Positions 1 to 57,774 of a stretch of DNA of 64,000 nt are shown here, one piece after another. Both the position numbers and the translations under genes were made by a program. The DNA comes from Candidatus Pacearchaeota archaeon (lineage in GTDB: Archaea; Nanobdellota; Nanobdellia; Pacearchaeales; GW2011-AR1), in assembly GCA_023136775.1 (NCBI GenBank), contig JAGLQO010000018.1, positions 20,452 through 84,451 on the forward strand, in the 5' to 3' direction. The notes below the pieces were generated by a model. It saw only the letters and a program-made list of their open reading frames with translations, had not been told where the DNA came from and ran no database searches. Numbering within the stretch: the stretch's first letter is position 1; each line of letters opens with the position of its first letter.

Positions 1-3000
1 CTACTGGGGCTGTTGTATCAACATAAAATGTTTGATTTATTGTAGATGTAACTAAATTTGCATTATCAATACATGACACCGACCAATTATATTCTCCGTC
101 TAAAACACCTACTATACTAAAATCGAGTGATGCTCCTTGAATTATTGGTGTCGAATTTGTCTGATTGTATATCCCATTTATGTAAAGTGAACAATTTTCT
201 ATTTGATCATTGTCTGTGACATTGTATTCTAAATCTACACTACTAGAATCAAACCATGTTAAATCCGCAGTCAAAAGCTCTACTGTTGGTGGGGTGTCAG
301 ATACCGTGAAATTTCTTGTCTCACTAAAATTTAAATTTCCTGCATTGTCTTGACATGATATATTCCATAAGTGGTCTCCTAATCCCACTGTTTTTGTTAA
401 GTTTGTATAGCTTGAATTTATTGCCGAAAATCCTGTTTCGATTATTGCACCGTCCAATATTAAATCGCAAGTTAAATTTGAATCTAAGTTGTCTAGTGCT
501 GTGAAGTTAAAATTGACCGAAACCGAACCTAAAGATTCGTCAACTATTGGGTTATGTAAAATCATTTGTGGTAATATTGTGTCTATTGTGAATGTCCTTG
601 CTGTGGCGTCAGTTGCTGTTTCTCCTAATGTATCCGTTGTATTAACGGTCCAATTATAATTTCCGTCTAGTAGGGAAATTGTAAAATTATTTATTTGATT
701 ATTTATAATTATTGAAGCATTGGTCATGTTTTCTTGACCATTTAAAATTAATGTTGTATTGGCTATGTTATTATTTTCGTCGGACGCATTGTAAAATAAA
801 GTTACTTGACTCGTGTTGAATATATATGTGTCAACTGGATTTGTTAAATATATGTTCGGTGGCATATTTGAATCTTCAACTTCGATGTTTTGGGTGGTTG
901 TCCCTGTTGCACTCGAATACGTTGAAGTTGCGATACATCTTATGTCATTGAACGATGCGGCATTTCCCCTAAGTGTAAAATTTGTCTGGACTGCCGAGGA
1001 CACAGAACCGAGCGAATGCGGATTTGTTTCTCCTGTATTTAAAATCAAACTGCCTGATGAACCTATGTTTAGCCAATCGGTTCCGTTGTACCTTTGTATA
1101 TATGCGTTTGTATTTGGGCAATTTCCGACTGAACATGAAGCTTCACAGGTTACGTTTGTTGTGGATTCACGCGCAATACTAACGTTAGATGTTGGATAAA
1201 CTAGGTCTGTACTTAACGCACCTAAAACCGTGAAGGTCATAAGATTTACGTAAGCCCATCTGTCATCGTCCCATGTATGTGTAAAATCCAATGTAGATGT
1301 ATCTGAATTATAAACATTCAAAACCATTTTAATTCGGTCAGACTTTTTTAGAACTAAATCATATGCTGGGGAATTGCAAGTTCCGTCCCAATTTGCCGAG
1401 AGAGAACTCATTCTTGTTCCCGATGTAAAATCGTCACCTGATTGACAAATTAAGAAATTTCCTGAACTGTTTTCCACATAAAGTTTCCACGTTAAATATC
1501 CCACATTGCTTGTTGATACCGTTGTGGGTGCACTAAAATCTATAATTGTTGAACTTGGTATTATTGCTCCACCATTTCCTAGATATGGAGTTTTTGCGAT
1601 CGTGACTGTTGTAACCGCCGAAGCTGGTAACGTCATTGACACTGTATTTTCTGTTGCATCCCTAGAGTTTGCCAAACCTATATTTGCTGCAGATGTGAAG
1701 TCAATTGTTGAAGTTTCATAAAATCTATTTCCCCAGTTATATGTTTGCGGTCCTGACACATTGAGTTGTCTGGATTCTGAACTTGAGGTTAATCCTCCGT
1801 CGTCGCTACAATTTATGTACCATATATAAATTCCGTTGTCCAAATAAACTTCAAAAAATTGCAAAGTTCCCATTGCTATTGATGTATCTGTCCAGATTAT
1901 TTCTTCGTTTGCTATTAAAGAACATGAATCCACTCCTGAATTGTCTGTTGCATTATAGGAAAAATATAATGTGTTTGTCGTGTTTGTCGTTTGGTTCGCG
2001 GGACTAATGGAAGTTACTGTTGGAGGACTTGTGTCTATATCAAATACTACGTTATTTGATTCGTACATTGTCCCTAGCGTGTCGTTGCAATAAAATGTCA
2101 TATTGTGGGTCGTTGAAGAAAGTCCTATTTGAGTATAATAAAAGTAAGTTGAATTAAGGCTCGTCATTGTTACATTAGCTGCTCCATCTAAAGAATATGC
2201 ACACCAGCTTCCAGCGTCAGTTAGTGTTACATTGAAGTCAATTGTTGTTGTTGAATATGTTTGAGCTTTTGGGGAAATAATTGATAAAAAATCTACTGGA
2301 GCTTCACCTAATGCTATTACAAACCAATTTGTATTTTGAGTCTGACTACCTGTTCCCTTTTGAAATTGAATTGTAGTTGTATTCAATATTTTATTTGTTG
2401 TAAATGCATTAGCAAATGTTGTTCCTCCACCTGTACTTGTATGAGACTCTAAGGAAAATGATTTATTCAATTCTATTTGATTTATGTTAGCGTTAACTGC
2501 GGTTGCTCCCGCTACTGATGTTAATCCACTTTGAGTTGTAAATCTATTATTTTCTACAACAAACCATGATATTCCATGAGTTGCTGAACCCGTATTTTTG
2601 TAAAACTCTATGTTATCTGAGTCTGTAAAGTACCCTCGGATAAATGTTTCTTGAAGACTTGTTTGTCCTGCAATTTGACTAGAAAATGTCAGAAAACTTC
2701 TTGAAGTGTTAACCGTGTTTGTCAATGCTTGAGGAGAGGTCACTCCTGTACCAGATAAAAATCCCGACTGAATTTTAGAATCGTCCCACTCTATTGCTTG
2801 CCAATGAAATTCTCCAGTAGTTCCAGTTGTCCCTCTTGACATAGCAATCTGCGTTGCACTATTAAATTTACTCGACCAAAATCCCTGGACATTTTGACTA
2901 GTAGTTCCAGAATTTAATCTATTTGATATTGTTGCAAAACTTTCTGTTAAATTAATTTGTCTTATTGATGTCGTATCTGAAGAATCACCCGTTGAATATT

Positions 3001-6000
3001 CATTGCTTCCTCTTTGAACATATAAGTCTTGGCTTTCCACTACCGTCCATTCTATGTAGACATCTCCAGTGGATGAATACCTCCTGAAATTTATTTTATC
3101 TTCCATTAATTCTCCTAAAATTTGAATTTGATTAGGTCCACTTGATGCACTTCTAAAAGAGAAAAGTAAAAATGCTTTTGACAAATCTTGTGTTGGAAAT
3201 GTTATATTTACTTCACTGCTTCCGTCGGGCAAAATAGTCGTTCCCCTACTTACGTTTTCTGTTGTTCCTATATCAATTGAAAAAGAAACTGAATCAGAAC
3301 TAGCGGGTCCCACAATTCCTCCACAATAATAATCCACGTCATAATCTCCTTCTCTGAGGTATTTTTTATATGCGCTAAAATAAGTTGAATTAATTTGGGT
3401 CATTGATACGTTAGTTGCGCCATTAAGAGAATAACTACACCACGAAACTGGCTTGCTAGTATTAACTATAAAATTTAAATTACTGGTGTTGTATGTTTGT
3501 GCGAGTGGTTGGATTGCATTAATAATTAGAGGGGCTGAATCCACTGAGAAAAAATATTGTTCACTTGAATATTCTCCACCGTAAGTATTGTTACAATAAA
3601 ATGTCACATTGTGAGTTGTGTCAGATAATCCTGACTGACTATAATCAAAATTCTTACTGGTTACTTCATCCATTGTCGTATTGGCTGCTCCGTCCAAAGA
3701 AAACCAACAAGAATCTGAATCTATTAACGTCGAGACTTCAAAATTTACCGTTGAGCTACCATAAATTGTATTATTGATTGGGGCATCTACCTCCATCATA
3801 TTTAATATTTTTTCAGAATATAAAAAACCCGTACTTGAATTGAAAAATAAAAGCTCATAAGGTTCTGGTGTATGTTGCTGCTCTTCATCTCCGAATTGAT
3901 CTTCGTCAGAAAGTAAATATACAATATTAGAAGGAGCTGAATAATGGACTGTTGGAAAAACTCCATTAGTTCCGTCTACCCTTATTCCTGAGCCTAATGC
4001 GATACCCCCCTCATAGGACTGTGATAATGTTACAAAATAATTACTCATTGGATATGGGTCATTTTGTGAACCCGCAACATTATCATTTTCCCAGTAGGCC
4101 TCCCATGAATATCCCGTTACCCCATCTCCTGATGTCCCCGTATTGTCTCTGGTTTCTGAATTTGACCAGTCTGAATCCATCTCCCATGCGATATAACCAC
4201 CTTCCTCATTTTGAGTATGCAACTCACATGGTCTAATTTCTTCATCATTTTCCATCCCATTAAGACCAATTTCAATACAAGTCGTGTTCCATGTGTCTGA
4301 GTTTGTATTGGTACAGCCTCGAAGATATTGTGAAATTGGGTCTACGTCATTTGCTGTTTGAACTGCTGCTAAAACTAGAGGTTGAAAATCCCATGAATTT
4401 TGAAAAGGTCTGTGGTTGGCTGCATAAGTCCAATCAACTGGATTTGCACCACTACCACAGGCATCAACGTCCATTGTGAAATTTACAACCTCTACTTCCC
4501 TAACTGGAGTTCCTGCGTTGGAAACATTGTGAATTCCTTTTTCCATTGCTAACCAATATCCATTTATTCCTGTTGATGGGCAAGATGCGGCTTCGCTCCA
4601 CGAATCTGTTCTAATTTGAAACCCGTCTTTTGTTATTGCTCTAACTCTTGTGGTACAGGGGTTATCATCGTAATCATAACCATAATCTATTTGATGAACT
4701 ACCACTGGAACTTCTCTGAAAGAATGCTGAAAAGATACTGTGTTCCATGTAGCTGTTGGAATATCTTCTACAACTCCCCATTCCCCTATTGATTCATATT
4801 GAGTGGTGTCGACCAAAAATGTTGTATTTGAAGAATTGTATAGTCCAAATGTATCGTTGCAATAAATTTCTAAGCTGTACTCTCCTCCGCTTAATGATTT
4901 TATGTCTGAAAAAAATGTATCGTTAATTTTTGTCATTGTTACGTTTGCCGCACCGTCTAAAGAATATCCACACCAATCTGTTATTTTGTTTGTTGTTACG
5001 TTTATATAGATATTTGAAGTAGAATATGATTGCGGTGTTGGGGACACTATGTTTACCTCAATTGGAATTCCTGGATCAATAACCGATAGGCTAGAACTGT
5101 TCACCCATGTGCTATAATCTATTCCGTCATATCCTCTCATTGAACATGTCCAGTTGTCGCCATTAGTTGTGTTGGAACTTAGTAGTATCGCATTAAAGAA
5201 TGTGCCGTTTAAATATGAATTGTTGTAATCTATCGATAAATTTAGTACTTCATTTTTATACCACCTAATGGAGACGTTTATCGAATCTCCGTCTGGGTCG
5301 TGAAGTGTATCAAAGCAGTTTAAATCTTGTGTCTCTTTATTCGTCCCATCTGTTGAATTTATTTGAGGAGTTGGAATTGGAGGCATGTTAATAAAAATTT
5401 CTTTCTTAATTTCAAAACAATCTATATAGAAATCCTCTTGATTTGAATTTGCTTCTGTTGCGAAACGAACTGCAAAGTCTGATTGTAGTTCTGCTCCTGA
5501 AATTATACGTTCATAGTAAGTCCAATCACTTCCTGTACAAGCTCCTAAATCATAGGAGAATACGTCGTTGTGCCATGCTCCAGAATAATATTCATCATAA
5601 GAGAAATAGTCGTTTGCATCAAAACTTGAATCACATCTCCAGTAAAAACTTATATTCGCAGATTTTGCTCCGCTTAAATTAACTAATCCTGCATCCATTG
5701 TTATGTATTGTGTGGCGGATGCTGTACCATCTACGTGTGCAGCTGCACTGCCACAAATTTCTGCAGACTGAGTATTTCTATCCCATGCGTTTGTGTCTCT
5801 TGACCAATTTCCTGCAGCGTCATAATAATAAGGGCTTGTGCTTTCAAAACTATCGTAAAAAATCGAGCTATTAAACCAGGGATCTATTATTAAATCAAAC
5901 ATTATTGTCCCTCCTAAAATTAGTAGGTCGAAAGTATCTTGCATCGATTGTAAATTTGTTAGGAATATTTGATATTTCTTGTTTTCGTTAATTATGCCGA

Positions 6001-7189
6001 AGTCTGCTATTTTTTCAGTTCCATTTTTCTCATAGACTTCCACTGTTGCATTTGGGTCGCTACTTTTTGCGTAGATTGTAATATCATTTTTAGAAGTAAG
6101 GAGTTTTTCAAATGTTACTCTCGCATAATGTCCAGCTGTAATTTCTTGCCATATATCATCTTTCTTCGATACTGCTTCGTAAATGTCTTCTATGACTTGC
6201 CTATTTTCATCGAGATGTTGTGCGTGTGTTATTTCAATTATTATTTCAAAAGTCTGAGTTGAAAGATGGGGGACTGTCCATTCTATTTTATCCAGTAAGG
6301 AATTGTTGTTTGTGTCGTAGGCTTTGAATGGTAAAAATTTCTTTTCTTCTTTCCAATAAACATTTATTGAAGACTCTTTTTCGAAAGGTAATTCTTCTGT
6401 AAGATTTGTAAATGCTAAAACATTTTTATAATGTAAATCTGAAGAAATTTCTACTTCCTTTATTTTCTTTGAAATTATTTTTTCTTTTTTTATTGGGGCT
6501 GGAGTAATATATTCTATATTTGTATTTTCTGGGACCTGCAAAATTGCAATAGTTTTTTTCTTTTCTTCTATAACTAAATTTGCTAAGTTATCGGCTAAAG
6601 AATTTTTTATTTTGAAGTCTATTGAGGAGTTTTTTGAAGATATTAAAATATTTGTTGATATTTCTGGGATTTTTATTTGGATATTGTTTCCTGAGGCTAT
6701 TTCTTCTTTCCATTTTACATCTTCTCCTACTTTAATTTGATTTAATATTGAATTGGTTGGTGGTGGACAGTTAGATACATTGCTTTGTGATTCGTCTACA
6801 CTTTCGTCTGGTACTTGAATTTCAATTTCTTCTAGTGGAATTTCTACTGTTTTATATTTTGGAATATCTGCTTTATCTAAAACTTTGAATTCTATTTGCT
6901 TTGACGATTCATCGCCTTTGATATCCATTATATAATCGCCAATATAATCTGGCTTGAAAATGAAATAAGTTTTATTTGATTCGTAGAGAAATGTTTGCTC
7001 TGGAGTTTGGATTGTCATTATGTAATTGCCAATTTCTCCTATATCGACTTTTACTTTTTCACCTAAGGTATAGATGTCTTCTGGTGTTGCCGAAGTCAAA
7101 AGGATGAAGAAAAGTGACGTTGTTAAAACGAGAGCTAGCACTAGTCCCAACTTCGCTGCTCCCACTTTTAACATACATCTCTTGTTCAT
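1..7189 (-). CDS. Giant secreted adhesin-like surface protein, N-terminal 2396 codons only (C-terminus beyond the left window edge)
   Basis: Absent from the ORF track because no stop lies in the window. My reverse-strand read from ATG 7189-7187 (MNKRCMLKVGAAKLGLVLALVLTTSLFF, signal/anchor helix) stays open to position 1, and no other minus-strand ORF of 60 aa or more is reported in 1..7245. The N-terminal ~450 aa align with the 3608-aa protein (YWKEEKKFLPFKAYDTNNNSLLDKIEWTVPHLSTQTFEI vs YWKEESKYLDFQAYDTNNDTFLDQIEWIVPHLSNQTFEI). Repeated (W/C)xYSLDGAANVT modules and dense N-x-S/T sequons. Confidence 0.8.
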   Translation of the reverse strand, partial: MNKRCMLKVGAAKLGLVLALVLTTSLFFILLTSATPEDIYTLGEKVKVDIGEIGNYIMTIQTPEQTFLYESNKTYFIFKPDYIGDYIMDIKGDESSKQIEFKVLDKADIPKYKTVEIPLEEIEIQVPDESVDESQSNVSNCPPPTNSILNQIKVGEDVKWKEEIASGNNIQIKIPEISTNILISSKNSSIDFKIKNSLADNLANLVIEEKKKTIAILQVPENTNIEYITPAPIKKEKIISKKIKEVEISSDLHYKNVLAFTNLTEELPFEKESSINVYWKEEKKFLPFKAYDTNNNSLLDKIEWTVPHLSTQTFEIIIEITHAQHLDENRQVIEDIYEAVSKKDDIWQEITAGHYARVTFEKLLTSKNDITIYAKSSDPNATVEVYEKNGTEKIADFGIINENKKYQIFLTNLQSMQDTFDLLILGGTIMFDLIIDPWFNSSIFYDSFESTSPYYYDAAGNWSRDTNAWDRNTQSAEICGSAAAHVDGTASATQYITMDAGLVNLSGAKSANISFYWRCDSSFDANDYFSYDEYYSGAWHNDVFSYDLGACTGSDWTYYERIISGAELQSDFAVRFATEANSNQEDFYIDCFEIKKEIFINMPPIPTPQINSTDGTNKETQDLNCFDTLHDPDGDSINVSIRWYKNEVLNLSIDYNNSYLNGTFFNAILLSSNTTNGDNWTCSMRGYDGIDYSTWVNSSSLSVIDPGIPIEVNIVSPTPQSYSTSNIYINVTTNKITDWCGYSLDGAANVTMTKINDTFFSDIKSLSGGEYSLEIYCNDTFGLYNSSNTTFLVDTTQYESIGEWGVVEDIPTATWNTVSFQHSFREVPVVVHQIDYGYDYDDNPCTTRVRAITKDGFQIRTDSWSEAASCPSTGINGYWLAMEKGIHNVSNAGTPVREVEVVNFTMDVDACGSGANPVDWTYAANHRPFQNSWDFQPLVLAAVQTANDVDPISQYLRGCTNTNSDTWNTTCIEIGLNGMENDEEIRPCELHTQNEEGGYIAWEMDSDWSNSETRDNTGTSGDGVTGYSWEAYWENDNVAGSQNDPYPMSNYFVTLSQSYEGGIALGSGIRVDGTNGVFPTVHYSAPSNIVYLLSDEDQFGDEEQQHTPEPYELLFFNSSTGFLYSEKILNMMEVDAPINNTIYGSSTVNFEVSTLIDSDSCWFSLDGAANTTMDEVTSKNFDYSQSGLSDTTHNVTFYCNNTYGGEYSSEQYFFSVDSAPLIINAIQPLAQTYNTSNLNFIVNTSKPVSWCSYSLNGATNVSMTQINSTYFSAYKKYLREGDYDVDYYCGGIVGPASSDSVSFSIDIGTTENVSRGTTILPDGSSEVNITFPTQDLSKAFLLFSFRSASSGPNQIQILGELMEDKINFRRYSSTGDVYIEWTVVESQDLYVQRGSNEYSTGDSSDTTSIRQINLTESFATISNRLNSGTTSQNVQGFWSSKFNSATQIAMSRGTTGTTGEFHWQAIEWDDSKIQSGFLSGTGVTSPQALTNTVNTSRSFLTFSSQIAGQTSLQETFIRGYFTDSDNIEFYKNTGSATHGISWFVVENNRFTTQSGLTSVAGATAVNANINQIELNKSFSLESHTSTGGGTTFANAFTTNKILNTTTIQFQKGTGSQTQNTNWFVIALGEAPVDFLSIISPKAQTYSTTTIDFNVTLTDAGSWCAYSLDGAANVTMTSLNSTYFYYTQIGLSSTTHNMTFYCNDTLGTMYESNNVVFDIDTSPPTVTSISPANQTTNTTNTLYFSYNATDNSGVDSCSLIANEEIIWTDTSIAMGTLQFFEVYLDNGIYIWYINCSDDGGLTSSSESRQLNVSGPQTYNWGNRFYETSTIDFTSAANIGLANSRDATENTVSMTLPASAVTTVTIAKTPYLGNGGAIIPSSTIIDFSAPTTVSTSNVGYLTWKLYVENSSGNFLICQSGDDFTSGTRMSSLSANWDGTCNSPAYDLVLKKSDRIKMVLNVYNSDTSTLDFTHTWDDDRWAYVNLMTFTVLGALSTDLVYPTSNVSIARESTTNVTCEASCSVGNCPNTNAYIQRYNGTDWLNIGSSGSLILNTGETNPHSLGSVSSAVQTNFTLRGNAASFNDIRCIATSTYSSATGTTTQNIEVEDSNMPPNIYLTNPVDTYIFNTSQVTLFYNASDENNNIANTTLILNGQENMTNASIIINNQINNFTISLLDGNYNWTVNTTDTLGETATDATARTFTIDTILPQMILHNPIVDESLGSVSVNFNFTALDNLDSNLTCDLILDGAIIETGFSAINSSYTNLTKTVGLGDHLWNISCQDNAGNLNFSETRNFTVSDTPPTVELLTADLTWFDSSSVDLEYNVTDNDQIENCSLYINGIYNQTNSTPIIQGASLDFSIVGVLDGEYNWSVSCIDNANLVTSTINQTFYVDTTAPV

Positions 7190-7588: not shown

Positions 7589-7824
7589 GCAAATTGGTCT
7601 CAAACGACATGATTCTGGTGAACCCGCTCGCGGATTTATAGAATTTGGTGGATTTAAGACAGGAGAAGGAAGACAATTTTTAGCTCACGGATTTACACGG
7701 ATACCTTCGGTATTCACGGATTCAAGGCAATGATTTTGGGAGTGGTTTTGAGTTTATTTGTTGGGGTGTTCTTCCATAAAAAATTGCGCCATCTTCGGAC
7801 GGCGCATTTCTTATGGAGTTTTTT
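7589..7824 (+). repeat. Composite intergenic element (modules C, B, A, then a T-run)
   Basis: C module 7589-7637 (GGTCTCAAACGACATG..CCGCTCGCGGATTT). B module 7683-7722 (GCTCACGGATTTACACGG-ATACCttcGGTAT-TCACGGATT). GGATTCAAGGCAATGATTTTGGGAGTGG linker. A hairpin 7771-7818, then T6 at 7819-7824. Confidence 0.9.
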
Positions 7825-7884: not shown

Positions 7885-8247
7885 ATGGCTATTGGCGGAA
7901 TTGGGCTTTTTGAAGATGTAATGCCAGAAGATTATTTGGAATTATCTAATGGGGTTATTGTGAAGAATTTGTCGGAGCTAGTGGATGCTTTGGGAAAAAT
8001 GGACAAAAATGACTTTGAACTTCATGTTACTAAATCTCGAAATGATTTTGCGGAATGGATATTAGAGGCGTATAATGACGAGAAGCTTACGAGGAAATTA
8101 TTGGGAGCTATTGATAAAGAAAAGAATTTAAGAATTTTGAAAGATGTTGTTAAGAATACTGAAAGTAAAAAAGTTAATAGGATTAATATGCCAAAAAACA
8201 AGAAAAGTATTTTGAAAAATTTGGAGGGTATTGATGGCGGGATGTAG
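7885..8247 (+). CDS. Small cytoplasmic protein made of the ~60-aa module also found at the C-termini of both HerA-like ATPases
   Basis: LELSNGVIVKNLSELVDALGKMDKNDFELHVTKSRNDFAEWILEA aligns with LTFDNGAMISSLAEIKDMLPTLDEDIFKLHVNEEKNEISDWLKEL (ATPase 1). AT-rich TATA-like stretch ~25 nt upstream. Alternative ATG at 7921. Confidence 0.6.
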   Translation: MAIGGIGLFEDVMPEDYLELSNGVIVKNLSELVDALGKMDKNDFELHVTKSRNDFAEWILEAYNDEKLTRKLLGAIDKEKNLRILKDVVKNTESKKVNRINMPKNKKSILKNLEGIDGGM

Positions 8248-10230: not shown

Positions 10231-10527
10231 AAATTTGCTCACGGCACCCTCACTAATTTATTTGATTAATTTTGTTTGTGATTATATATCTAATTTTGGG
10301 GATTATGCTGATTCAATGCAGGAAGACAAATTTGCTCGCAGATTTACACGGATACCTTCGGTATTCACGGATTTTGTTTTGGGAATTTTTCTTCCATGAA
10401 AAATCGTAGCATCTGCGGACGCCACGATGTTCTCATGGAGTTTATTGCTGAAGCGAGGCTAATGAGCGATTGTGTTGCTAAGCATATGGGAGCGAGAGTA
10501 AGGAGCGAGTGGGTAACTGAGCGACTC
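10231..10527 (+). repeat. Composite intergenic element (modules G, B, A, F)
   Basis: G 10231-10253 (AAATTTGCTCACGGCACCCTCAC, also at 30901). B 10334-10373. A hairpin 10391-10440 with a TGCG loop. Purine-rich GAGCGAG module F 10451-10527. Confidence 0.9.
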
Positions 10528-18892: not shown

Positions 18893-19160
18893 GGGGCAAA
18901 TTTTGCTCACGGATTTTGGGGATTCAAGACAAAAGGCGATTTTGCTCACGGATTACACGGACGCCTTTGGCGTTCACGGATTTAAGGCAATGATTTTTGG
19001 AGTGGGTTTTTTATTTTTGGGAAGTTCCTTCCATAAGAAATTATGACAATTTTTCCTTCGGAAAAAACGCCACAATTTCTTATGGAGTTTTTTGCTTGTT
19101 GGAGCGTGGTGAGGGGCGGGGGCGGCGCGTGAGTGAGAGAGTGTTAGCGAGTGAAGGAAC
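18893..19160 (+). repeat. Composite intergenic element (core, B, A, T-run, F)
   Basis: GCTCACGGATT core 18905-18915. B 18944-18982 (stem ACGCC/GGCGT). Long-form A hairpin 19028-19087 (TTTTCCTTCGGAAAAA centre), then T6 at 19088-19093. GC-rich F module 19101-19160. Confidence 0.9.
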
Positions 19161-27619: not shown

Positions 27620-27856
27620 GATGGATTTAGGGCAGGAAGACAAAAGACAAATTGGCTCACGGATTATGGGGATTTTGGGGATTCAATACAGGGGAAGAAA
27701 GACAATTTTTGCTCACGGATTTTCACAGATGTCTTCGACATTCACGGATAGGGGCAATGATTTTGGAAATGATTTGATTTTGGCGACTTTCTTCCATGAG
27801 AAATTATAGCAATTTTTCCTTCGGAAAAAACGCTATAATTTCTCATTGAGTTTTTT
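27620..27856 (+). repeat. Composite intergenic element (core, B, A, T-run)
   Basis: Core 27655-27665. B 27711-27749 (stem ATGTC/GACAT). Long-form A hairpin 27791-27850, then T6 at 27851-27856. Confidence 0.9.
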
Positions 27857-41900: not shown

Positions 41901-43791
41901 ACAAAACAGATCTATTTGAATCTCCCCAATCGTTTTGACCTGATGTATCTAAGCATTGAATATTCCAAATGAAATAATTATCCGTTGGTAAATTTAACTC
42001 GAAGGATGTGGTATTTGTCGTCCCTGTTACTGTTTTTGTTTGGTTTAGATGCCAGGTCTCGGTATGATTGGTCCATAATGAACAGTTTATTAATTCTGAT
42101 TCGGCTACTACTGTTGCATTCAATATTAATGGAGATGTGGATGAGTGGATATAATTTGTGACAGGATATTCTAAGGTTACGTTTGGGGGTCCGGGTATTA
42201 ATGGAATAATATTTATATTATCTGTCCAATAATTTTCGTTGTTTCCTAAAACCGAATAAAATCTTACTGAAAAACCTGAGTGCCGATACTGGATATCTGT
42301 TGTTGAGATTGTATAAGTATTCCATATATCGTCTGATGTTCCTAATGTTCCAGCGTCTATGTTTCCCATGTTGTCCCAGTTCCCCAAGCTATTATTAAAA
42401 TACAATATTACATCCCCGGCATCACAATCATCGTCCCTGTATTCAAAAGATACGTTCACCCTCAGGGCAGAGGATACGTCTGCATCGTTGGTATTTATAT
42501 CACAACTCTGCCATTCTGCACATTTTGCACTATATACGTCTCGGGCCTGATCTGAGGCAATTGCCCAATTGGTGTTTGTCCAATTATCAAAAAGTTGAGC
42601 TTCCCAATTTTCATAAAACAAGGAAATATAAGATGGGTCTACAATATAATCAAATTCTAGCGAACCATCGAGTATTTTTAAATCGAATGTATCTTGGAGT
42701 TTTGTAAGTTTCGTCAGATAAACTTTATTTCCCCCTTCTTTTAGATTAGTAAATTCTGCTATTATTTCGCTGCCATTTTGCTCATAAATTTCAATCCTTG
42801 GATTGCCTGAAATAATTCTTGGATAAACTGTTATGTCTTTTGTGTTGTCTAATTTTTTTTCAAAAGTTACTCTTACATACTCTCTATCAAATATAGTTGG
42901 AGACCAGACATCGTCTAATTCTTTAACTTCGTTGTAAATGTTTTCTAAAAATATTTTGTTTGCGTCTAGGTGTTGTGCATCTGTGATTAGAATAATTTCA
43001 AAAGTTTGATTGCTTAGGTGGGGGACTATCCATTCTATTTGGTCTAAGAAGGTATCATTATTTGTATCATAGGCTTGAAAATCTAAATATTTACTTTCTT
43101 CTTTCCAATAAATCTTTAATTGATTTTTATTTTGAGGGATTAGTTTAAAATTTATTTTTGTTGTGACTGTGACATTTTCATAATGCTCTTCAGAATAAAC
43201 TAAGACTTGTTTTCCATGAGAAAGATTAGTTTCTATTTTTTTTGGGGCTTGGGTAACGTATTCTATTTCAATATAGTCTTTTGATTCAGATGTAGAGAAA
43301 GTGCTTAGTAAAATTGGAGATTTTATTTTTTCAGCGTTTTTTGGGATTTGTATTTTATAATTTGAATCATTTGTATAAACTCGTTTTGTCCATTTTACTT
43401 TTTCCCCAACTTTTGCCGGATTTTGAATTAGTTCTATTCTTAGTTGTGTTGTATTTTCTTGGGTAGAATTTTCTTGGGAGATTATTTTTTGGTCTTCTAT
43501 AAAAAATTGAGAAGTCTTCGACTCCTCATTTCTTATAGAAGAATTATCTGTAGTTTGATTATTTGAAGAATTGCCTTGAGACATATCAATTGTTTTATTT
43601 TCTGAATTATTTTCTTGTGAAACTTCTATAGTTTCTTCAGAAATATTTTGTGAGATAGTTTGGTTAATAACTTGTGTTTTATTTGGAACAAATGATATAT
43701 TTGCGGACGAAGAAACTATTGTAATCATCAAAGTATAGACGACAAAAAGTGTAAAAATGTCTCGCAGTCCCACGTCTCCCTTATTATTCAT
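32965..43791 (-). CDS. Giant (3608 aa) repeat-rich adhesin-like surface protein
   Basis: N-terminal hydrophobic helix IFTLFVVYTLMITIVSS. About 14 canonical ~95-aa repeats (NF.NITF.LYNSSGLINQTTFTDTTRQINFTSLPDGNYEYNVT) plus 3 TAPTG variants. Two copies of an FDNWTN..YRDDDCDAGD..LYFNNSLGNWDNMGNIDAGTLGTSDD domain. CSL(Y/F)GTW.GGWH modules and a C-terminal FN3-like domain. No C-terminal TM. Confidence 0.9.
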   Translation of the reverse strand: MNNKGDVGLRDIFTLFVVYTLMITIVSSSANISFVPNKTQVINQTISQNISEETIEVSQENNSENKTIDMSQGNSSNNQTTDNSSIRNEESKTSQFFIEDQKIISQENSTQENTTQLRIELIQNPAKVGEKVKWTKRVYTNDSNYKIQIPKNAEKIKSPILLSTFSTSESKDYIEIEYVTQAPKKIETNLSHGKQVLVYSEEHYENVTVTTKINFKLIPQNKNQLKIYWKEESKYLDFQAYDTNNDTFLDQIEWIVPHLSNQTFEIILITDAQHLDANKIFLENIYNEVKELDDVWSPTIFDREYVRVTFEKKLDNTKDITVYPRIISGNPRIEIYEQNGSEIIAEFTNLKEGGNKVYLTKLTKLQDTFDLKILDGSLEFDYIVDPSYISLFYENWEAQLFDNWTNTNWAIASDQARDVYSAKCAEWQSCDINTNDADVSSALRVNVSFEYRDDDCDAGDVILYFNNSLGNWDNMGNIDAGTLGTSDDIWNTYTISTTDIQYRHSGFSVRFYSVLGNNENYWTDNINIIPLIPGPPNVTLEYPVTNYIHSSTSPLILNATVVAESELINCSLWTNHTETWHLNQTKTVTGTTNTTSFELNLPTDNYFIWNIQCLDTSGQNDWGDSNRSVLSDRTYPLISFTSPTENNDTIFSRDWIYAEVSLTETNFKNITFHLYNSTDLVNQTTFLSQTININWTNLPDETYYYNVTIFDIANNSNSTQTRLIALDTSAPTGNNLLPLSDSYSNNNTQNLTATVEDVIELKDATLFVYNSTGHIIYSNLTTLTGLTSAIVGTVYEFPYDGVFTWAYRARDSVDNEYNTTSNIIEIDTTAPEITFISPTEASEEIFLRDWILINTSITEENFKNITFHLYNSSGLINQTTFTDTTRQINFTSLPDGNYEYNVSSYDLANNKGYSETRLITLDTTAPTLYFSGETLPNNSVITGTEITAEVTAIELNEKNITFALYDEDGVLAKPLSTFTDGRRTLTWDNLAPNAVYSYNVTMADKVSLLNSTSTRKIIIDNTPPAVNFIPLTEIDNANKSQTFIFINTSITEENFKNITFHLYNSSGLINQTTFTDITRQINFTSLPDGNYEYNVTIFDKASQNSTTPTRSIALDTTLPIVTFIPSTENNDTNVGRDWTFINVSVIEDNFKEIKFSIYDSSGLINQTTFTDTTRQINFTSLPDGNYEYNVTVADYSQNQNSTETRRIGLDSEGPIVTIIKPITKTYGYDESLPLNHTVSDTVSDVDSCWWNIDGGENQSITCNSATTFNTTVDSHTIYFFANDTFGNLGTDSVSFSVSVTGPAIELEVPENNTFYGIAILVNFNFTASDPDTVDTCSLYGTWSGGWHKNDSYVVLQEEENSSVFSAQMSDEGTYFWNIECNDTVGYSSFALENYTFTIDVTDPQVFFGSGTEVNDTNVGRNWIYLDANLIETNFQNITFSLYNSTTLVNENTFTDTTRQINWTGLESGFYSYNITAYDKASNAGYSETRIINLDLIAPTGELLTPTNNSYSSSTSKNLTVNFTDATGLLNATLYILNATGHTIYSEVVELGGALTATIGVVYNFIQEGIYQWFYSIEDIVGNKINTTSNTLTIDTTHPLIAYGDGMQESGLILKQKNIFINSTSSDEYWENITFDLYDSDEHIYSNTFTDITRQINWTNLPDEIYFYNVTAYDKAGNSNTTQTQNMTLDNLAPVVDFSGITKPNGAFVSGDSISLEVSVTEANEENITFFLYNSTGSKIRENTNTEQGRLITWTNLYDEGIYYYNVTVIDKVGFSTSTATRSIIIDDTPPQVSYGSETLDNNSYVNQNWIFIKATLLEDNFQNITFTLHNSSGLINQTTFTDTTREINFTELIDATYWYNITTYDKAGNSDTTQSRYATLDSIFPAIDFTSPTKIDNFNTTQNWIYVNTTILDTNFQNITFSLYDEISLINQTTFTDTTRQINWTNLQSKVYWYNITTSDKASNVNITETRKIGIDYIGPSIQITSPEATSYNYNESIPLTYIISDIITEPNTCWYNLDNGDNTTVDCFGSSTFNASDGGHTLHYFANDTLGNLGYKNITFLISVTGPTILLLNPEDNVFYSQATEVFFNYTAEDPDLTESCSLFGTWNGGWHLNQTDYDWIFTEDSSKTEDFESSTFDNWTNVNWAIDSDQAIGTYSAKCTEISNCDMNSKNDTYASSATLINVTFRYRDDDCDAGDIILYFNNSLGNWDNMGNIDAGTLGTSDDVWNTYTVSSIGVQYQHPGFSIRFFADPENNENYWMDEIKVNYEEDYNKPSGNFTLNLSEEGTHKWNVKCNDTKSYETWAVANYSITFDVTNPIVDFGENTLPNNSNVSQNFIYVNSSITETNYKNITFYLYNDTDFISSQFYNDSTFDHTFSSLDDGIYYYNITVFDSANRHNSSGTRKIMLDTKAPTGNLISPNHNSHVNNATQNLTGTFSDENGLKEAILYIFNQTGFVYSQVVDLGGVLTATFGVVYEFLTDGIYQWFYQVEDTVGNLYNATNHSLIIDTTLPLVDFIPATKQTDTYISQDYIYLNTSVTDENFDNITLYLFGPESKSNTFDSTDNKFDINWTNLPENGFYEYNVTVYDKAGNVNSSETRNITLDNIFPVVNYVYPTEINFANKSQDWIFVNTTVTETNFQNITFKLYNNAGLVDSTFFTNSTRQINWTDLNEEEYFYNVTTCDKAKQCTNLPTRKITLDITKPSLGFGDSTEDDGAEFERDWIYVDSSADIIETNFRNMSYRLYNNNSQLINETTYFSRTYNINFTASGENKTYFYDIIVWDWANNFGTTSTRNITLIDTTNPSLVLTSPENVTYPYNDGIRLEYIAKDVHLDTCWYSLDGATNVTLPGCGAKVFNFVDETTHTFDLYVNDTLGYMNSSSVTFSVNSSSIQTPTYKVLHGDIFTNGGNGVEIGITDMSKSFILHSTRAGNHRPDTLQVISDFTTSENIRFENYNSVSGAMVEWSLISGPKIKTQRSDIAFTTETNLSTNIGAVNLSSSFIIVNTKLNSSDSSKNVEGFFTGRFSSNSSIEFIRESGSASGVLSYQIVSWEGVNVQNGSVNISDSSSSVSEGINAVDLNNSFLIFSHSLYGGENVNDLMVKGNFSNSSNLEFSRTGSTGDIVINYFVVSSDMFDTQRGDYAHSLTTDTQPIDLDYDLINVKRSFNIHSNENNGLPNNFGFAYVTSSIHDNNTIDLQKGLASGAGTTSWFAIEIKDLNNPIVNLTTPLDTNNYTAHTVGPFSYTITDESNMSNCSLFGTWNGGWHKNQTLYNIDTENPTSFSSVDIGTSGFYNWSVECFDIYGNGFMTTNRSFSSYLSPTEPIFTNITQTTNDGTGDIFFSWNETNDTSKYNIYYSSNASSFEFLAETANTNYTDNTFSGNKRRFYKVEAWNPTLTNLSTKTFGVHVYELKHNNVTPAGSITNRNWIGFPTNFSYIKNANETLNEMTGITSISRLNATSQKQVSCNNFSCPESFACTNTACNFDLKVGEGYEVLLNLSETANINWSGVGIVSTPVTINLVHEIGARFNKNWISMTAITTFSTTIELADDDNGGILNEDAITRWNSEEQNSEGLIPNPFSWIPLDYLGGADIIMEEGYEISVTQNSEWTQQ
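40511..40656 (-). repeat. Intragenic near-identical DNA repeat (copy Y)
   Basis: 146 bp, identical at 144 positions to 41090-41235. An 89-bp stretch at 40226-40314 is identical to the start of the 41090 copy. Confidence 0.95.
41090..41235 (-). repeat. Intragenic near-identical DNA repeat (copy Z)
   Basis: See 40511-40656. Encodes part of the NFKNITFHLYNSSGLINQTTFTD.TRQINFTSLPDGNYEYN unit. Confidence 0.95.
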
Positions 43792-43860: not shown

Positions 43861-44032
43861 ATGGATTTTGGGGTTTTGGGGGCTTAAGATGAAAGACAAA
43901 TTTAGCTCGCGGATTTTAGGGACTTTAGGGATTCAAGATAATGATTTTTGGAGTTTTGATTTGGTTTTGGGAGTACTCTTCCATAAAAAATTACGGCATC
44001 TGCGGACACCGCATTTCTTATGGAAGATTTTT
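43861..44032 (+). repeat. Composite intergenic element (core, linker, A)
   Basis: GCTCGCGGATT 43905-43915. GGATTCAAGATAATGATTTTTGGAGT linker. A hairpin 43978-44026 (TGCG loop), then ATTTTT. Confidence 0.85.
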
Positions 44033-48100: not shown

Positions 48101-48299
48101 GTAAAAATCCACACGCGGCTGCGGCACACCTCTAATTTGTAAATTATGAGGCGATTTTAGATTCCAAATCCCTTACCGACTTCGTCGCAGATGATTTGAT
48201 ATATTGAGGGAATTTCTTTGAAATTCCCGACTTGTTCAACTTTCTTCCATAAGAAATTACGGCATCTTCGGACGCCGCATTTCTCATGGAGTGTTTTTT
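48101..48299 (+). repeat. 3-prime element: multi-stem module E plus an A hairpin and T-run (candidate structured RNA or terminator)
   Basis: GTAAAAATCCACAC..ATTTTAGATTCC, P1 CAAATC/GATTTG, hairpin GGGAATTTCtttGAAATTCCC (48208-48228). A hairpin 48244-48291 (TTCG loop), T-run 48294-48299. Starts 67 nt after the stop of 46352..48034. Confidence 0.85.
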
Positions 48300-48342: not shown

Positions 48343-49146
48343 ATGAAAATTTGTGCTATTGGCGACCCTCATGGGGATGTAAAAAAAATAAGAAAGATTC
48401 CTTTGAGGGGTGTTGATTTAATTTTAATCACTGGAGATGTCGGTAAAGCTGATTTTGCTCGAAATAGATTTTTTGAAAATAAGAAGAGAGAAATTGATGG
48501 GCTGGAAAAATTAAAATATACTAATAAAGATAGTATGACTGCTACTTTGGAAATATTTAATTCATCTATTAATGTATGGGAATACACTTCCAAAATTGCA
48601 CCCACCTATTCAATTCTTGGAAATGTCGGAATGTATATGATTTATGATTCAAACATAAAAAAAGAAGAGAAGAAATATGGATTAAAACTTCCTTCACTTA
48701 GACAAGGTATGAACAAGGTAAATGATTTTTATTTTGTCAGAAATCGAACAAGAATTATCGATGGACTCCGAGTTGGATTCTTAGAATATTTCGTTGACGA
48801 TTGTTGGAATAAAGAATATAGGGTAAAAGATAAAAAGAAAATTGCTGCGGCAAAAAAAGAAACCATAAAGGCAAAACGTATTTTAAATAATTTTAAAGAT
48901 TTAGACATTCTTGTTTGCCATCAGCCGCCTTATGGATATCTTGATAAGACAAATAACCCTTCGGCTCTAAAAGAATGGCAGGGGAAACATGCTGGAAGCA
49001 AGGTTATTCTAGATTATATAAAAAAGAATCAACCGAAGTATGTCTTTTGTGGACATATCCATGAGGCTGAAGGTCATGTGAAAATTGGAAAAACTGAAGT
49101 TTATAATTTAGGTGTAGCTGGGCACAAAATTATCGATTTAAAATAA
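48343..49146 (+). CDS. Calcineurin-like metallophosphoesterase
   Basis: Motifs ICAIGDPHGD, LITGDVGK, GNVG, HQPPYG and GHIHE appear in the canonical order. Confidence 0.85.
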   Translation: MKICAIGDPHGDVKKIRKIPLRGVDLILITGDVGKADFARNRFFENKKREIDGLEKLKYTNKDSMTATLEIFNSSINVWEYTSKIAPTYSILGNVGMYMIYDSNIKKEEKKYGLKLPSLRQGMNKVNDFYFVRNRTRIIDGLRVGFLEYFVDDCWNKEYRVKDKKKIAAAKKETIKAKRILNNFKDLDILVCHQPPYGYLDKTNNPSALKEWQGKHAGSKVILDYIKKNQPKYVFCGHIHEAEGHVKIGKTEVYNLGVAGHKIIDLK

Positions 49147-49179: not shown

Positions 49180-49240
49180 CTTCCATAAAAAATCATAGCG
49201 ATTTTTCCTTTGGAAAAAACGCCAATGATTTCTCATGGAG
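49180..49240 (+). terminator. Long-form A hairpin between convergent genes (possible terminator)
   Basis: CTTCCATAAAAAATCATAGCGATTTTTCCTTTGGAAAAAACGCCAATGATTTCTCATGGAG. Lies 34 nt after the stop of 48343..49146 and 18 nt from the stop of 49258..50064. The following T-run is weak (TGTTTTGG). Confidence 0.4.
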
Positions 49241-49257
49241 TGTTTTGGTTTAGAATA

Positions 49258-54804: not shown

Positions 54805-57348
54805 ATGGGGAGAGTTGGGAGACTAAATATAATTGTATTAATTTTGATGATAATTGGAGTTGGACTTGTTTCAGGTTCTAGTCAATTTTATAATCTTAAT
54901 ATTGATGTAGAAAAAATAGAAAATTTAAATTCTGAAGAAATAATATTAACTGTTAATTCGCCAAATGATGGATCAATTATTCTAAGTCCGATTGAGTTTG
55001 ACTTAAGTTTGAATTATTCTGACATGTCTCAGGTTGATTGTAAATTATATATTGATGGATTAAGTTATGACTTTGGAGCTAACGGAGATTCTTTTTACAA
55101 TATTGAATTATCTAGTGGTCAAAAAAACTGGGAAATAACATGTCGTGATTTTGAAGATTCTAATATTAACACTTCTGTTGATGGAAACTTTAATGTTTTT
55201 GATTTTTCTATTAATTCTTTAGATGAATTTTATTTTAACGATAGTACTATTTCTGGAACTGTTAATAGTCAAGGGGATTTTGAACTAAAACTTAAATGCG
55301 GTTCTGATGTCCAAACAATTAATACTAGTGGCGGAAATTTTAATGTTGAAAGTCCTGCAATTTCTGCTCCTGGGAAATATGAATTAATTGCTACGACTAA
55401 TTATTATAGTGAAGAATTGTCTGTTTCTAGAAATTTTTCGGTTGGTTATGCTAGTGTTAAATTTGTTGAAGAAAATTCAAATGTTGAAGAAAATGTTGGA
55501 GTTAAATTATATATTGATTCTCAGGGATTTTCTGGGAATTATTATATTAGAGTTGGAAGCGAATTGATTGCGGGGGATGGGTTTACTGGAGCGACTGTTA
55601 TTAATATTGACGCTGGGAATTTTAAATCTAGCAGTGACGGAAGTTATTCTTTAGCACTTACTGGTCAGGTTAATAATAAAAATTATAATTTTGCTGGACT
55701 AAATACTTTGACTGTTGCTAAGGCTGGGAATTCTGATATTGATAGTCCAGATATTGATTTGAAATATCCTGCGTGGGAAGAAACTGTAACAGGTTCTGAA
55801 ATAGAATTTGTGTACACGGTTGAGGACGATTATAATATTAGTGAATGTAAATTAAAAATATATAATGCTTCAAAAAATTCTGCCGGGGTTTATGAAACGG
55901 ATGGGTTGATTTTTCCTTTAAGTAATAGTGATAAAACTTTAGCGAATGAAGACGGTTTAGATAAAAGTGATGAGGTTAAATTGAAGTTAATTGATTTTGA
56001 TGCGGGAGACTTTATTTGGGAAGTTAAATGTAAGGATGGGTCTGGGAATACTGAATGGGATTTTAATTATTTTAAGGTTGATTTTTCAAGTACGAGCTAT
56101 GCTAAAAAAATAACAGATGCAACTAATAATTATACTCGAGAAGATGAGGTTAATGATTTAATTGGTAAAATTAATACATTTTTGGAGGCGGAGTCTAACT
56201 TAGGTATTGAGGAAAGGAATGCTTTGGAGATTTTAGGGATTGATGGCGATATGAGTTTTTATAAAAAGCAACTTATTCAGATGGATCAGGACTTAAAGTT
56301 TAATTTGAAATTTATGGAAGAGGCAAAACGAGAAAAGAGAATTTTGGAGATAGATGAGGAGATAGATGAGATAAGGGATGGAGTTGTTGTGAAAATAGAG
56401 GTGACGGATAGTTATGAATATTCTAAAAATAGCATTGATGTTGATGTCTTTGAGATAATTTCTAGATATTTTGTGGCGACTAATCACAATATAAAATCTA
56501 GTGCGCTTAAGGGGATTTCTAGATATAACGAAGGATTGCAAAGCAAGCTTGGTTCTCGAGTTGAAGCTTTGAGGTTGACTATTGATTATGTTGATGAATC
56601 TCGGGAAATGATTCTTGTTAGTAAAAAACTTACGTTTGATGCCGAGGGAGAAGAAAAACTTTTGGAGATTATTGATGAAGATATTACCAAGGAAATTATT
56701 TTTGTTAATGATGCTAGGGGTATTGGGGAATGTATTTGGGAAATTGAGGTTGATAATTTGATTAATGATAAACTTGTTTATTATTTTTATGATGATTTGT
56801 CTTTACAAAAGATTGAAAAAACCGAAAGTCTTCTGTTTGATGAGGAAGGACGCTTGGAAACCAATATGATAACGGGATTTGTTGTAGGAATTAGTGATGG
56901 ACTTAGTTTTTCGTTTTACTCATTCTTGATTGGATTCTTGTTTATGGGATATGTTGGATTCTTTTTGTTTGGGAAAGCTCGTCTTGAGGTTTGGAAAAAA
57001 GATGTGGCGGTTTCTAATTTGTTGAATTTAATTGAGAAGACTAAATTATTGCTTCGTCAAAATGATGTTGAAAATGCACGAGAGAATTATCATAAGATGG
57101 GGGAGGCGTATAAACTTCTTCCGAATAAATGTAAATTGTTTTTCTTTAATGAGATAAAGATGGTTCGGTTGGCGATTGATAAAAAGGATGTTTTGAATTT
57201 GGTTAAGGAATACGAAAAGGCTAAGATTGAAAATCGGAATGAGGATACTATTCGGCTTCATGCTCGGATTAGCGAGATTTACAAGAAGTTGCCTAAGAAA
57301 TTTCAGGATAAGGTTTATCAAAGATTGGTGAAGAATGAGGTTCGTTGA
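54805..57348 (+). CDS. Type I membrane surface protein (847 aa) with a ~150-aa helical cytoplasmic tail
   Basis: Signal peptide LNIIVLILMIIGVGLVSG. TM FSFYSFLIGFLFMGYVGFFLF. Tail with ARENYHKMGEAYKLLPNKCKLFFFNEI. Confidence 0.8.
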   Translation: MGRVGRLNIIVLILMIIGVGLVSGSSQFYNLNIDVEKIENLNSEEIILTVNSPNDGSIILSPIEFDLSLNYSDMSQVDCKLYIDGLSYDFGANGDSFYNIELSSGQKNWEITCRDFEDSNINTSVDGNFNVFDFSINSLDEFYFNDSTISGTVNSQGDFELKLKCGSDVQTINTSGGNFNVESPAISAPGKYELIATTNYYSEELSVSRNFSVGYASVKFVEENSNVEENVGVKLYIDSQGFSGNYYIRVGSELIAGDGFTGATVINIDAGNFKSSSDGSYSLALTGQVNNKNYNFAGLNTLTVAKAGNSDIDSPDIDLKYPAWEETVTGSEIEFVYTVEDDYNISECKLKIYNASKNSAGVYETDGLIFPLSNSDKTLANEDGLDKSDEVKLKLIDFDAGDFIWEVKCKDGSGNTEWDFNYFKVDFSSTSYAKKITDATNNYTREDEVNDLIGKINTFLEAESNLGIEERNALEILGIDGDMSFYKKQLIQMDQDLKFNLKFMEEAKREKRILEIDEEIDEIRDGVVVKIEVTDSYEYSKNSIDVDVFEIISRYFVATNHNIKSSALKGISRYNEGLQSKLGSRVEALRLTIDYVDESREMILVSKKLTFDAEGEEKLLEIIDEDITKEIIFVNDARGIGECIWEIEVDNLINDKLVYYFYDDLSLQKIEKTESLLFDEEGRLETNMITGFVVGISDGLSFSFYSFLIGFLFMGYVGFFLFGKARLEVWKKDVAVSNLLNLIEKTKLLLRQNDVENARENYHKMGEAYKLLPNKCKLFFFNEIKMVRLAIDKKDVLNLVKEYEKAKIENRNEDTIRLHARISEIYKKLPKKFQDKVYQRLVKNEVR

Positions 57349-57376
57349 CATTTTTTTCTGGTGAAAAAAATCGTCA

Positions 57377-57530
57377 GTAAAAATCCACACAGGATTTTAG
57401 ATTCCGAACCGCTTACCGCACAGGTCGCAGACGGTTCGATACACGAAGGGAATTTGTTTCAAATTCCCGTGATTCGGAATGTTCTTCCATAAGAAATCAC
57501 GACATCTTCGACGCCGCATTTCTCATGGAG
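57377..57530 (+). repeat. Second copy of 3-prime element E plus an A hairpin
   Basis: GTAAAAATCCACAC-AGGATTTTAGATTCC, P1 GAACCG/CGGTTC, hairpin GGGAATTTGtttCAAATTCCC (57448-57468), outer ATTCCGAA/TTCGGAAT. A hairpin 57484-57530. Starts 29 nt after the stop of 54805..57348. Confidence 0.85.
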
Positions 57531-57595
57531 TTATAAATTTTTTAACGGATGTTTTTTTATTTTGAAAATGATTATTATTTTTACTTCGAGACTTT

Positions 57596-57644
57596 CTTCC
57601 ATAGAAAATCGTAGCATCTGCGGACGCTACATTTCCCATGGAAG
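57596..57644 (+). repeat. Stand-alone A hairpin
   Basis: CTTCCATAGAAAAT-CGTAGC-atcTGCGgac-GCTAC-ATTTCCCATGGAAG. Confidence 0.9.
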
Positions 57645-57774
57645 ATTTAAATTATTTTATTTGAAGTCATGGGAAAGACGGACGATTTTGTTTATATTTT
57701 CTCTCCACGAGAAGTCGCGACTTTTTGTGGCCTCAACGGGCATTGCTCTACTGACCCCGATTTGGTTTTAATTT

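Follow-up and report, generated by a model that had tools for sequence, protein, structure and literature searches.

A strand-locked family of covarying hairpins among the intergenic repeats of an archaeal genome

What is the short hairpin that recurs between the genes of this archaeal genome, and on which strand does it act? The stretch of DNA analysed here (64,000 nt, C10:20452-84451, hereafter the window) belongs to an archaeal MAG of 1.2 Mb in 38 contigs, with 33% G+C and a completeness of ~87.5%. The initial annotation described nine copies of the hairpin, called Module A, with outer stems held in common, inner stems that change in a compensated manner, and loops of the UNCG type. It took the element to work as RNA on the plus strand. 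The genome was assigned to Archaea because it encodes two TBP genes and one L7Ae gene; an SSU rRNA gene that could serve for taxonomy is absent from the assembly. The sequencing runs that carry this DNA are cold-seep and marine-sediment metagenomes, with no RNA run listed among them. A tRNA scan of the window found no tRNA gene, and Rfam gave no match in the window at gathering scores. When three repeat-rich contigs were searched with E-values up to 1, nothing was found over the repeats.

All nine copies were recovered at the starts and with the arms originally given. The outer-arm pattern occurs 25 times in the window with at most two mismatches (both arms of each palindrome being counted), while shuffled windows have a mean of 2.45 occurrences and a maximum of 7, so that none of 100 shuffles reaches 25. 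The copies in the window, including a tenth that had not been listed, are as follows.

7771..7819, minus strand: Module A copy; minus-strand apex C-CGAA-G; CACGGAT array upstream on the plus strand
10391..10441, minus strand: Module A copy; apex CGCA; adjoining CACGGAT array
19028..19088, minus strand: Module A copy, long form; T6CC-GAA-GGA5 apex; between divergent ORFs
27791..27851, minus strand: Module A copy, long form
43494..43541, minus strand: tenth, degenerate Module A copy; outer stem CTATAA / TTATAG
43978..44026, minus strand: Module A copy; apex CGCA; between divergent ORFs
48244..48292, minus strand: Module A copy with a CGAA apex; leads a composite as its 5' module, ahead of the B-E multi-hairpin element
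49180..49241, minus strand: Module A copy in the long form; stands alone between two convergent ORFs that are 111 nt apart
57484..57531, minus strand: Module A copy with a GAA triloop; likewise leads a composite as its 5' module, ahead of B-E
57596..57644, minus strand: Module A copy; apex CGCA; stands alone

Copy 7771 sits between the divergent ORFs 2-7189(-) and 7885-8247(+). The degenerate copy falls within the 5' end of a listed ORF of 3,608 codons, 32965-43791(-), whose true start codon probably lies downstream of 43494. A profile search of the whole genome identified 39 complete copies of 48-61 nt, plus fragments, plus three copies split near the loop by a nested insert (C15:33670-33778, C34:81613-81728, C35:12159-12276). 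This insert of ~70 nt starts with GGGTCTGCCCCAACC and ends with GTGAGGGTGCG, and is also found inside stems of B-E. The ends of Module A read ACTCCAT or CTTCCAT ... ATGGAAG. By crude ORF calls the 39 copies are intergenic, save three that overlap doubtful ORF starts. No two of them are identical: nearest neighbours differ by 2-14 nt, and over all pairs the median is 15 differences in ~49 nt.

We measured covariation on an alignment of 37 copies. Paired cells make up 96.4% of the stem, versus 91.1% in shuffles (0 of 500 reach the observed value), and sliding the registers as a control brings pairing down to only 42-54%. Nine of the 18 stem pairs show changes on both sides, which bears out the claim that the inner stems vary and yet stay paired. 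Because pairing and covariation are well above both the shuffle and the slide controls, we regard the hairpin and its compensatory changes as real. The family thus has the character of a selected single-strand hairpin, as had been proposed, and not that of a product of a palindrome-making mechanism without covariation. Folded on the minus strand, the element has a near-invariant outer stem of 12 bp and an inner stem that is variable but compensated, with G·T (G·U) pairs both fixed and polymorphic, one bulged A, and a C-GNA-G apex.

The plus strand had been put forward as the functional one, and here the data point the other way. With RNA parameters in RNAfold, the minus-type strand is the more stable in all 39 copies (mean -26.4 vs -17.8 kcal/mol), and with DNA parameters it is so in 37 of them (-13.9 vs -11.3). 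It folds better because the positions that are not Watson-Crick pairs are G·T on this strand and A·C on the plus strand. Over whole folds, G·U pairs number 93 on the minus-type strand vs 17 on the plus-type strand, and the outer stem alone has 35 G·T vs 1 A·C on the former. Pair 8/57 illustrates the pattern: it is A-T in 15 copies, G·T in 14, G-C in 8, and A·C in none.

The loops had been given as an argument for the plus strand. The strings TTCG, TGCG or TTTG are indeed present on that strand in all ten window copies, but a closed UNCG loop is not general: a properly closed c-UNCG-g can form on the plus-type strand in 19 of the 39 genomic copies. Copy 57484 (ATCTTCGAC) has a TTC triloop on the plus strand, because a UUCG loop would there be closed by C and A. 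With a closed loop in only 19 of 39 copies, and on the strand that is weaker in every copy, the stability of UNCG loops no longer argues for a plus-strand RNA. The apex on the other strand, C-GNA-G or C-GNNA-G (including C-GAA-G and C-GCA-G), fits 32 of the 39 copies. The reverse complement of a UNCG string reads as a GNA triloop, so the letters of the loop cannot by themselves pick the strand, whereas the wobble pairs can. Motif reading in general calls for caution on this account: the same loop looks like UNCG or like GNA according to the strand that is read, and which strand folds is decided by the wobble pairs. C-GNA-G is the core of d(GCGNAGC), which like d(GCGNNAGC) is an extraordinarily stable DNA mini-hairpin (PMC13037366; PMC3201870), and the special stability of the GNA triloop is a property of DNA and not of RNA (PMC13037366).

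The folding strand of the hairpin is rich in G and T, yet it is embedded in a chromosome strand rich in C and A. Because the asymmetry of the hairpin opposes the local composition, skewed mutation cannot have made the excess of G·T pairs; we infer that the strand asymmetry was designed into the family or is maintained by selection. The G·T asymmetry and the covariation do not separate single-stranded DNA from RNA.

The genes around the copies bear on the reading first given to them, in which an RNA hairpin of the plus strand with a UNCG cap serves as an intrinsic-terminator-like or processing signal; a T-run behind the hairpin would be part of it. T-runs speak for this reading in part of the copies. 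On the TTCG strand only, a run of at least 5 T follows the hairpin within 15 nt in 15 of 39 copies, against 9% in the intergenic background, and a run of at least 4 T in 25 of 39, against 21%. Archaeal transcription is terminated by oligo-T tracts. The far end of about half of the composites of Module A and B-E also abuts the stop codon of a gene on the plus-type strand, and in these Module A and its T-run would close a structured 3' UTR. Placement speaks against it. Read along the plus (TTCG) strand, no more than 17 of 37 copies have a co-oriented gene on their 5' side, and read along the other strand 18 of 39 do; relative to its two neighbouring genes, Module A is spread 11/9/9/8 over the four possible arrangements; and divergent genes flank three of the window copies (7771, 19028 and 43978). 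The plus-type hairpin is moreover the weaker one in 39 of 39 copies, with A·C mismatches, and can close a UNCG loop in only 19; the reading leaves unexplained the strand lock described below; and the closest orthologue of a flanking gene, that of ORF 48343-49146 (77% amino-acid identity), has no Module A on either side. Gene order is not conserved around this orthologue, so that the comparison shows only absence beside the orthologue. Overall, a role of Module A as the main terminator or processing signal of particular genes is not supported, and we consider this explanation improbable. The T-run may let some copies stop read-through as a by-product, which would make a terminator role at most a secondary one.

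The orientation of Module A, which ignores the direction of the genes, follows instead the composition of the chromosome strands. We defined the compositional strand by the GC skew at third codon positions (GC3 skew), averaged over plus- and minus-strand genes to remove coding bias. The skew keeps one sign along whole contigs, where it reaches 0.3-0.7. It is very large, at 0.2-0.7 in most 10-kb bins of this genome and up to 0.9 per gene in relatives. Of the 39 copies of Module A, 37 have their folding strand on the C-rich strand, and one of the exceptions is a nearly perfect palindrome whose orientation is ambiguous. Contig by contig, the majority of copies obeys this rule in 15 of 15. It had been stated that the loops never read as the complement. 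This is true within the window and becomes, in contig coordinates, a split of 17 to 22 over the genome; the plus-strand TTCG or TGCG of all window copies reflects the fact that the window lies in a single skew domain. Copies thus do occur on both strands, with complementary loops, as far as contig coordinates go, and the real pattern is a lock to the GC skew.

Relatives were searched with a covariance model in 36 other species of the genus and in 24 genomes from eight other families of the order. Module A is present in 9 of the 36 congeneric species, with 1-23 matches each, and in none of the 24 genomes of the other families. Within the genus, the C-rich-strand rule is followed by 32 of 32 matches in 19 loci of the nine other species; the skew at these loci is 0.5-0.76 in most and 0.12-0.28 in two. 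Genes are without a lock like that of Module A: 55% of coding bases are on the G-rich strand. Of the tRNA genes, 24 lie on the C-rich strand and 11 on the G-rich one. A single orc1/cdc6 gene is found at C10:89378, on the same contig as the window. No change in the sign of the skew was found at orc1/cdc6 in five genomes, and cdc6 itself is on the G-rich strand in every one of them. A repeat so strictly locked could serve as a marker of the replication strand in fragmented MAGs.

The lock and the wobble asymmetry together make it very improbable that Module A is read as a duplex, be it as a palindromic site for a dimeric DNA-binding protein or as a neutral palindrome kept perfect by template switching. 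Its outer arms are a near-perfect inverted repeat with invariant bases, and TTCCA...TGGAA has what we take to be a loose likeness to the dyads of archaeal origin-recognition boxes. A duplex site is strandless, yet the copies are strand-locked and show 35 G·T vs 1 A·C, and a protein that reads the duplex would not require the inner stem to pair while its sequence changes. Template switching, for its part, yields Watson-Crick arms, in which later skewed mutation gives A·C, not G·T, on the C-rich strand.

Module A often comes in company. Followed in the folding orientation, 19 copies lead into B-E within 60 nt, 6 into an ATCCGTG array, and 14 are alone or next to other modules. B-E is an element of four hairpins and ~138 nt, present in ~70 copies, with the same strand bias in 63 of 78 matches. 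Its stems covary, and the last one keeps a G·T pair on the same strand as Module A. With Module A it forms a composite of ~190 nt and five hairpins. The partner modules of the window include the following.

57344..57480, minus strand: B-E multi-hairpin element joined to copy 57484; its GTCAA end overlaps the stop codon of ORF 54805-57348(+)
48153..48238, minus strand: 5' part of the B-E joined to copy 48244; the remainder, with a nested insertion, runs to ~48040
7683..7724, minus strand: ATCCGTG triple array with a small covarying C-GAA-G hairpin; adjoins copy 7771

Similar ATCCGTG arrays lie beside copies 10391, 19028 and 27791, and a degenerate one beside 43978; the heptamers have a strand bias in the same direction as Module A. 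We conclude that Module A is a non-coding, interchangeable module of mosaic repeat arrays that fill intergenic gaps, in this genome and also in some of its congeners. Several details of the partners can be added. The triple CACGGAT / ATCCGTG arrays span 7683-7724, 10335-10375, 18943-18984 and 27710-27752, and their minus-strand apex is again C-GAA-G. The GTCAA end of B-E is positioned with remarkable precision. In 19 of 25 cases it meets a convergent gene, at a distance of -4 to +7 nt from its stop codon, and at -4 it supplies the TGA itself. In the other cases a start codon follows 31-47 nt downstream, and a TATA-like box lies in the interval. Genes for PF05635 (23S rRNA IVS protein, or 'GxxExxY') are two in number (C12:17818 and C23:11786), and neither is flanked by Module A or by ATCCGTG arrays; one has a small GCGTCG-A5-CGACGC hairpin downstream.

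An array of covarying hairpins with G·U pairs invites an explanation by RNA made from the minus-type strand, in which small structured RNAs would begin with Module A as their 5' stem-loop, or in which Module A would be an element of RNA stability or processing. The asymmetry of G·U vs A·C and the covariation are classic signatures of RNA. The downstream B-E behaves in the same way on the same strand, with covarying stems and a G·T pair in the last of them. Independence from the orientation of neighbouring genes fits separate small RNA genes, and A/T-rich, TATA-like words are found immediately 5' of the hairpin on the minus-type strand. These words abut the hairpin, however, and are not ~25 nt upstream as an archaeal TATA box is. 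No Rfam family matches, even with E-values up to 1, and the distribution within the genus is patchy. The GNA triloop is specially stable in DNA and not in RNA (PMC13037366), and a nearly complete lock to the compositional strand (37 of 39 and 32 of 32 copies) has no known reason at the RNA level and is not shown by genes. We therefore consider a minus-strand RNA unlikely, albeit less so than a terminator.

The reading that we favour, with about as much doubt as confidence, is by analogy with well-described bacterial elements: Module A would be a single-strand hairpin recognised by a protein, likely as single-stranded DNA (ssDNA), and akin to the hairpins of REP, of IS200 ends and of attC sites. 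The active form would be a single-stranded nucleic acid, and most likely DNA that replication exposes on one strand in particular. A protein would read the invariant outer stem by its sequence and the inner stem by its shape, which is how REP sequences, the end hairpins of IS200/IS605 and integron attC sites are read. Such recognition could spread copies in one orientation or keep them in it, or else remove those in the opposite orientation.

Y1 transposases were considered as mobilisers of the copies. In this genome five loci match PF01797, among them these.

C24:10757-11312, C23:55362-55917 and C20:15801-16359: IS200-type element of 556 bp with a 150-aa Y1 transposase; the copies are 95-99% identical and one has an in-frame stop
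C15:24685-25050: separate, single Y1 gene of 170 aa

The resident 556-bp IS200 was rejected as the source of Module A: its left-end and right-end hairpins are unrelated to it. We also rejected a Y1 transposase as the general mobiliser, PF01797 being absent from eight of the nine other carriers, including one with 23 matches; these carriers are incomplete MAGs (72-89% complete), in which such an absence is not proof. Neither TnpB nor a reverse transcriptase was found in this 87.5%-complete genome. Around the composites of Module A and B-E we found no target-site duplication: the longest word shared by the two flanks averages 5.58 nt, against 5.64 nt in mismatched pairs. The contigs of four other DNA runs are short, of low depth, and chimeric in their joints at repeats. 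Two joints with short sides would remove 43477-43596 and 57533-57728; they are weak and repeat-induced, and we did not count them as evidence.

One close likeness of Module A is to the REP sequences and BIMEs (REPINs) of proteobacteria. These too are short, imperfect, extragenic palindromes in tens of copies (39 complete ones for Module A), they enter into mosaic intergenic arrays with other modules, they form families with compensated stems, and they are thought to act as ssDNA hairpins. REP sequences and REPINs have a conserved GTAG or CGTC tetranucleotide at one end (PMC3733652), a tag that Module A lacks. Module A is also longer, at 48-61 nt, and its copies are single and in one orientation instead of forming inverted doublets: 57484 and 57596 are direct, and the runs along contigs are uniform. 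REPIN populations have a master sequence, whereas Module A has no identical copies. Finally, genomes with REP sequences each have a cognate RAYT (TnpA-REP) gene, which encodes a Y1 transposase and is flanked by REPs. For Module A there is no cognate single-copy RAYT, and the Y1 family as a whole is missing from most other carriers, as seen above. In Archaea, only Y1 proteins of the IS200 type are known (PMC6006769). We thus regard Module A as a variant of the REP-like kind and not as a member of it, because the tests of tag, doublets and cognate transposase fail.

IS200/IS605 elements operate through hairpins of ssDNA, and they have a tie to the lagging-strand template (PMC6006769). Module A resembles the ends of these elements and of their gene-less derivatives (PATEs) in being a strand-specific hairpin, probably of ssDNA, with mismatches or bulges and in the lack of a detected target-site duplication. 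The orientation of IS200/IS605 elements is tied to the replication strand (PMC6006769), and the lock of Module A to the GC3-skew strand may be a counterpart of this. Module A differs in having one hairpin in place of a left-end and right-end pair, and in the unrelated ends of the resident IS200. The strand may differ as well. Should the lagging-strand template be the G-rich strand, as it is in bacteria, then Module A folds better on the other, less exposed template, opposite to the arrangement of IS608-type elements.

The attC sites of integrons share with Module A a centre that is conserved in structure over sequence, conserved outer boxes, and probably the activity of one folded strand only. 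The orientation of attC arrays is linked to replication. Unlike attC sites, the stem base of Module A has no R''/R' core sites (RYYYAAC / GTTRRRY), and its neighbours run both ways, ORFs of 2,400-3,600 codons among them, with no cassettes in one orientation. Bacterial BOX, RUP and Correia elements and archaeal MITEs resemble Module A in their modular make-up, their intergenic position, their ability to form hairpins and their uneven spread among relatives. They carry terminal inverted repeats, come with target-site duplications and insert in either orientation, whereas Module A is a single, strand-locked hairpin. Terminators made of a hairpin and a U-tract, and UNCG hairpins more generally, have in common with it a stem that contains GC, the UNCG strings in the loop and, for 40-60% of its copies, a T-run that follows on the plus strand. 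They differ from it in that Module A is always weaker on that strand, is not placed behind co-oriented genes, and has a closed UNCG in half of the copies.

One may go a step further and suppose that Module A and its partners are what can be seen of an archaeal system of ssDNA hairpins that does without Y1 transposases. We put this forward tentatively, as a possibility that we judge rather doubtful. In such a system, a putative protein would recognise the folded hairpin on one replication strand, and this recognition would either copy the hairpin or serve a task of the host at the fork. If that is true, Archaea would have here their first REP-like system, with a new enzyme, in genomes whose GC3 skew reaches 0.5-0.9. 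Dispersed hairpin repeats such as REP with RAYT, IS200 ends and attC sites are well studied in bacteria. No such hairpin family in DPANN archaea was described in the literature that we searched. Module A provides one whose structure is kept through ~30% of sequence divergence, which is found in only some species of the genus, and which has the same orientation in ~95-100% of copies. Through it, strand-specific processes on ssDNA become open to study in archaea beyond the reach of culture.

The carriers of the genus offer some further arrangements. The order of Module A, a B-E-like element and a convergent 5S rRNA gene is kept in two species (C9:1123-1463 here; G003:C36, L058). In this 5S-adjacent arrangement the hairpin, which keeps its two G·T pairs, has changed far less than the element beside it, and the copy kept in the second species fits conservation in place as well as mobility. 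In other relatives (L044, L046 and L059; G015 and G027), Module A is followed by short tandem repeats on the C/A-rich strand, with units such as CTAATGT, AAACCTAATCTCT and CCGAACAA.
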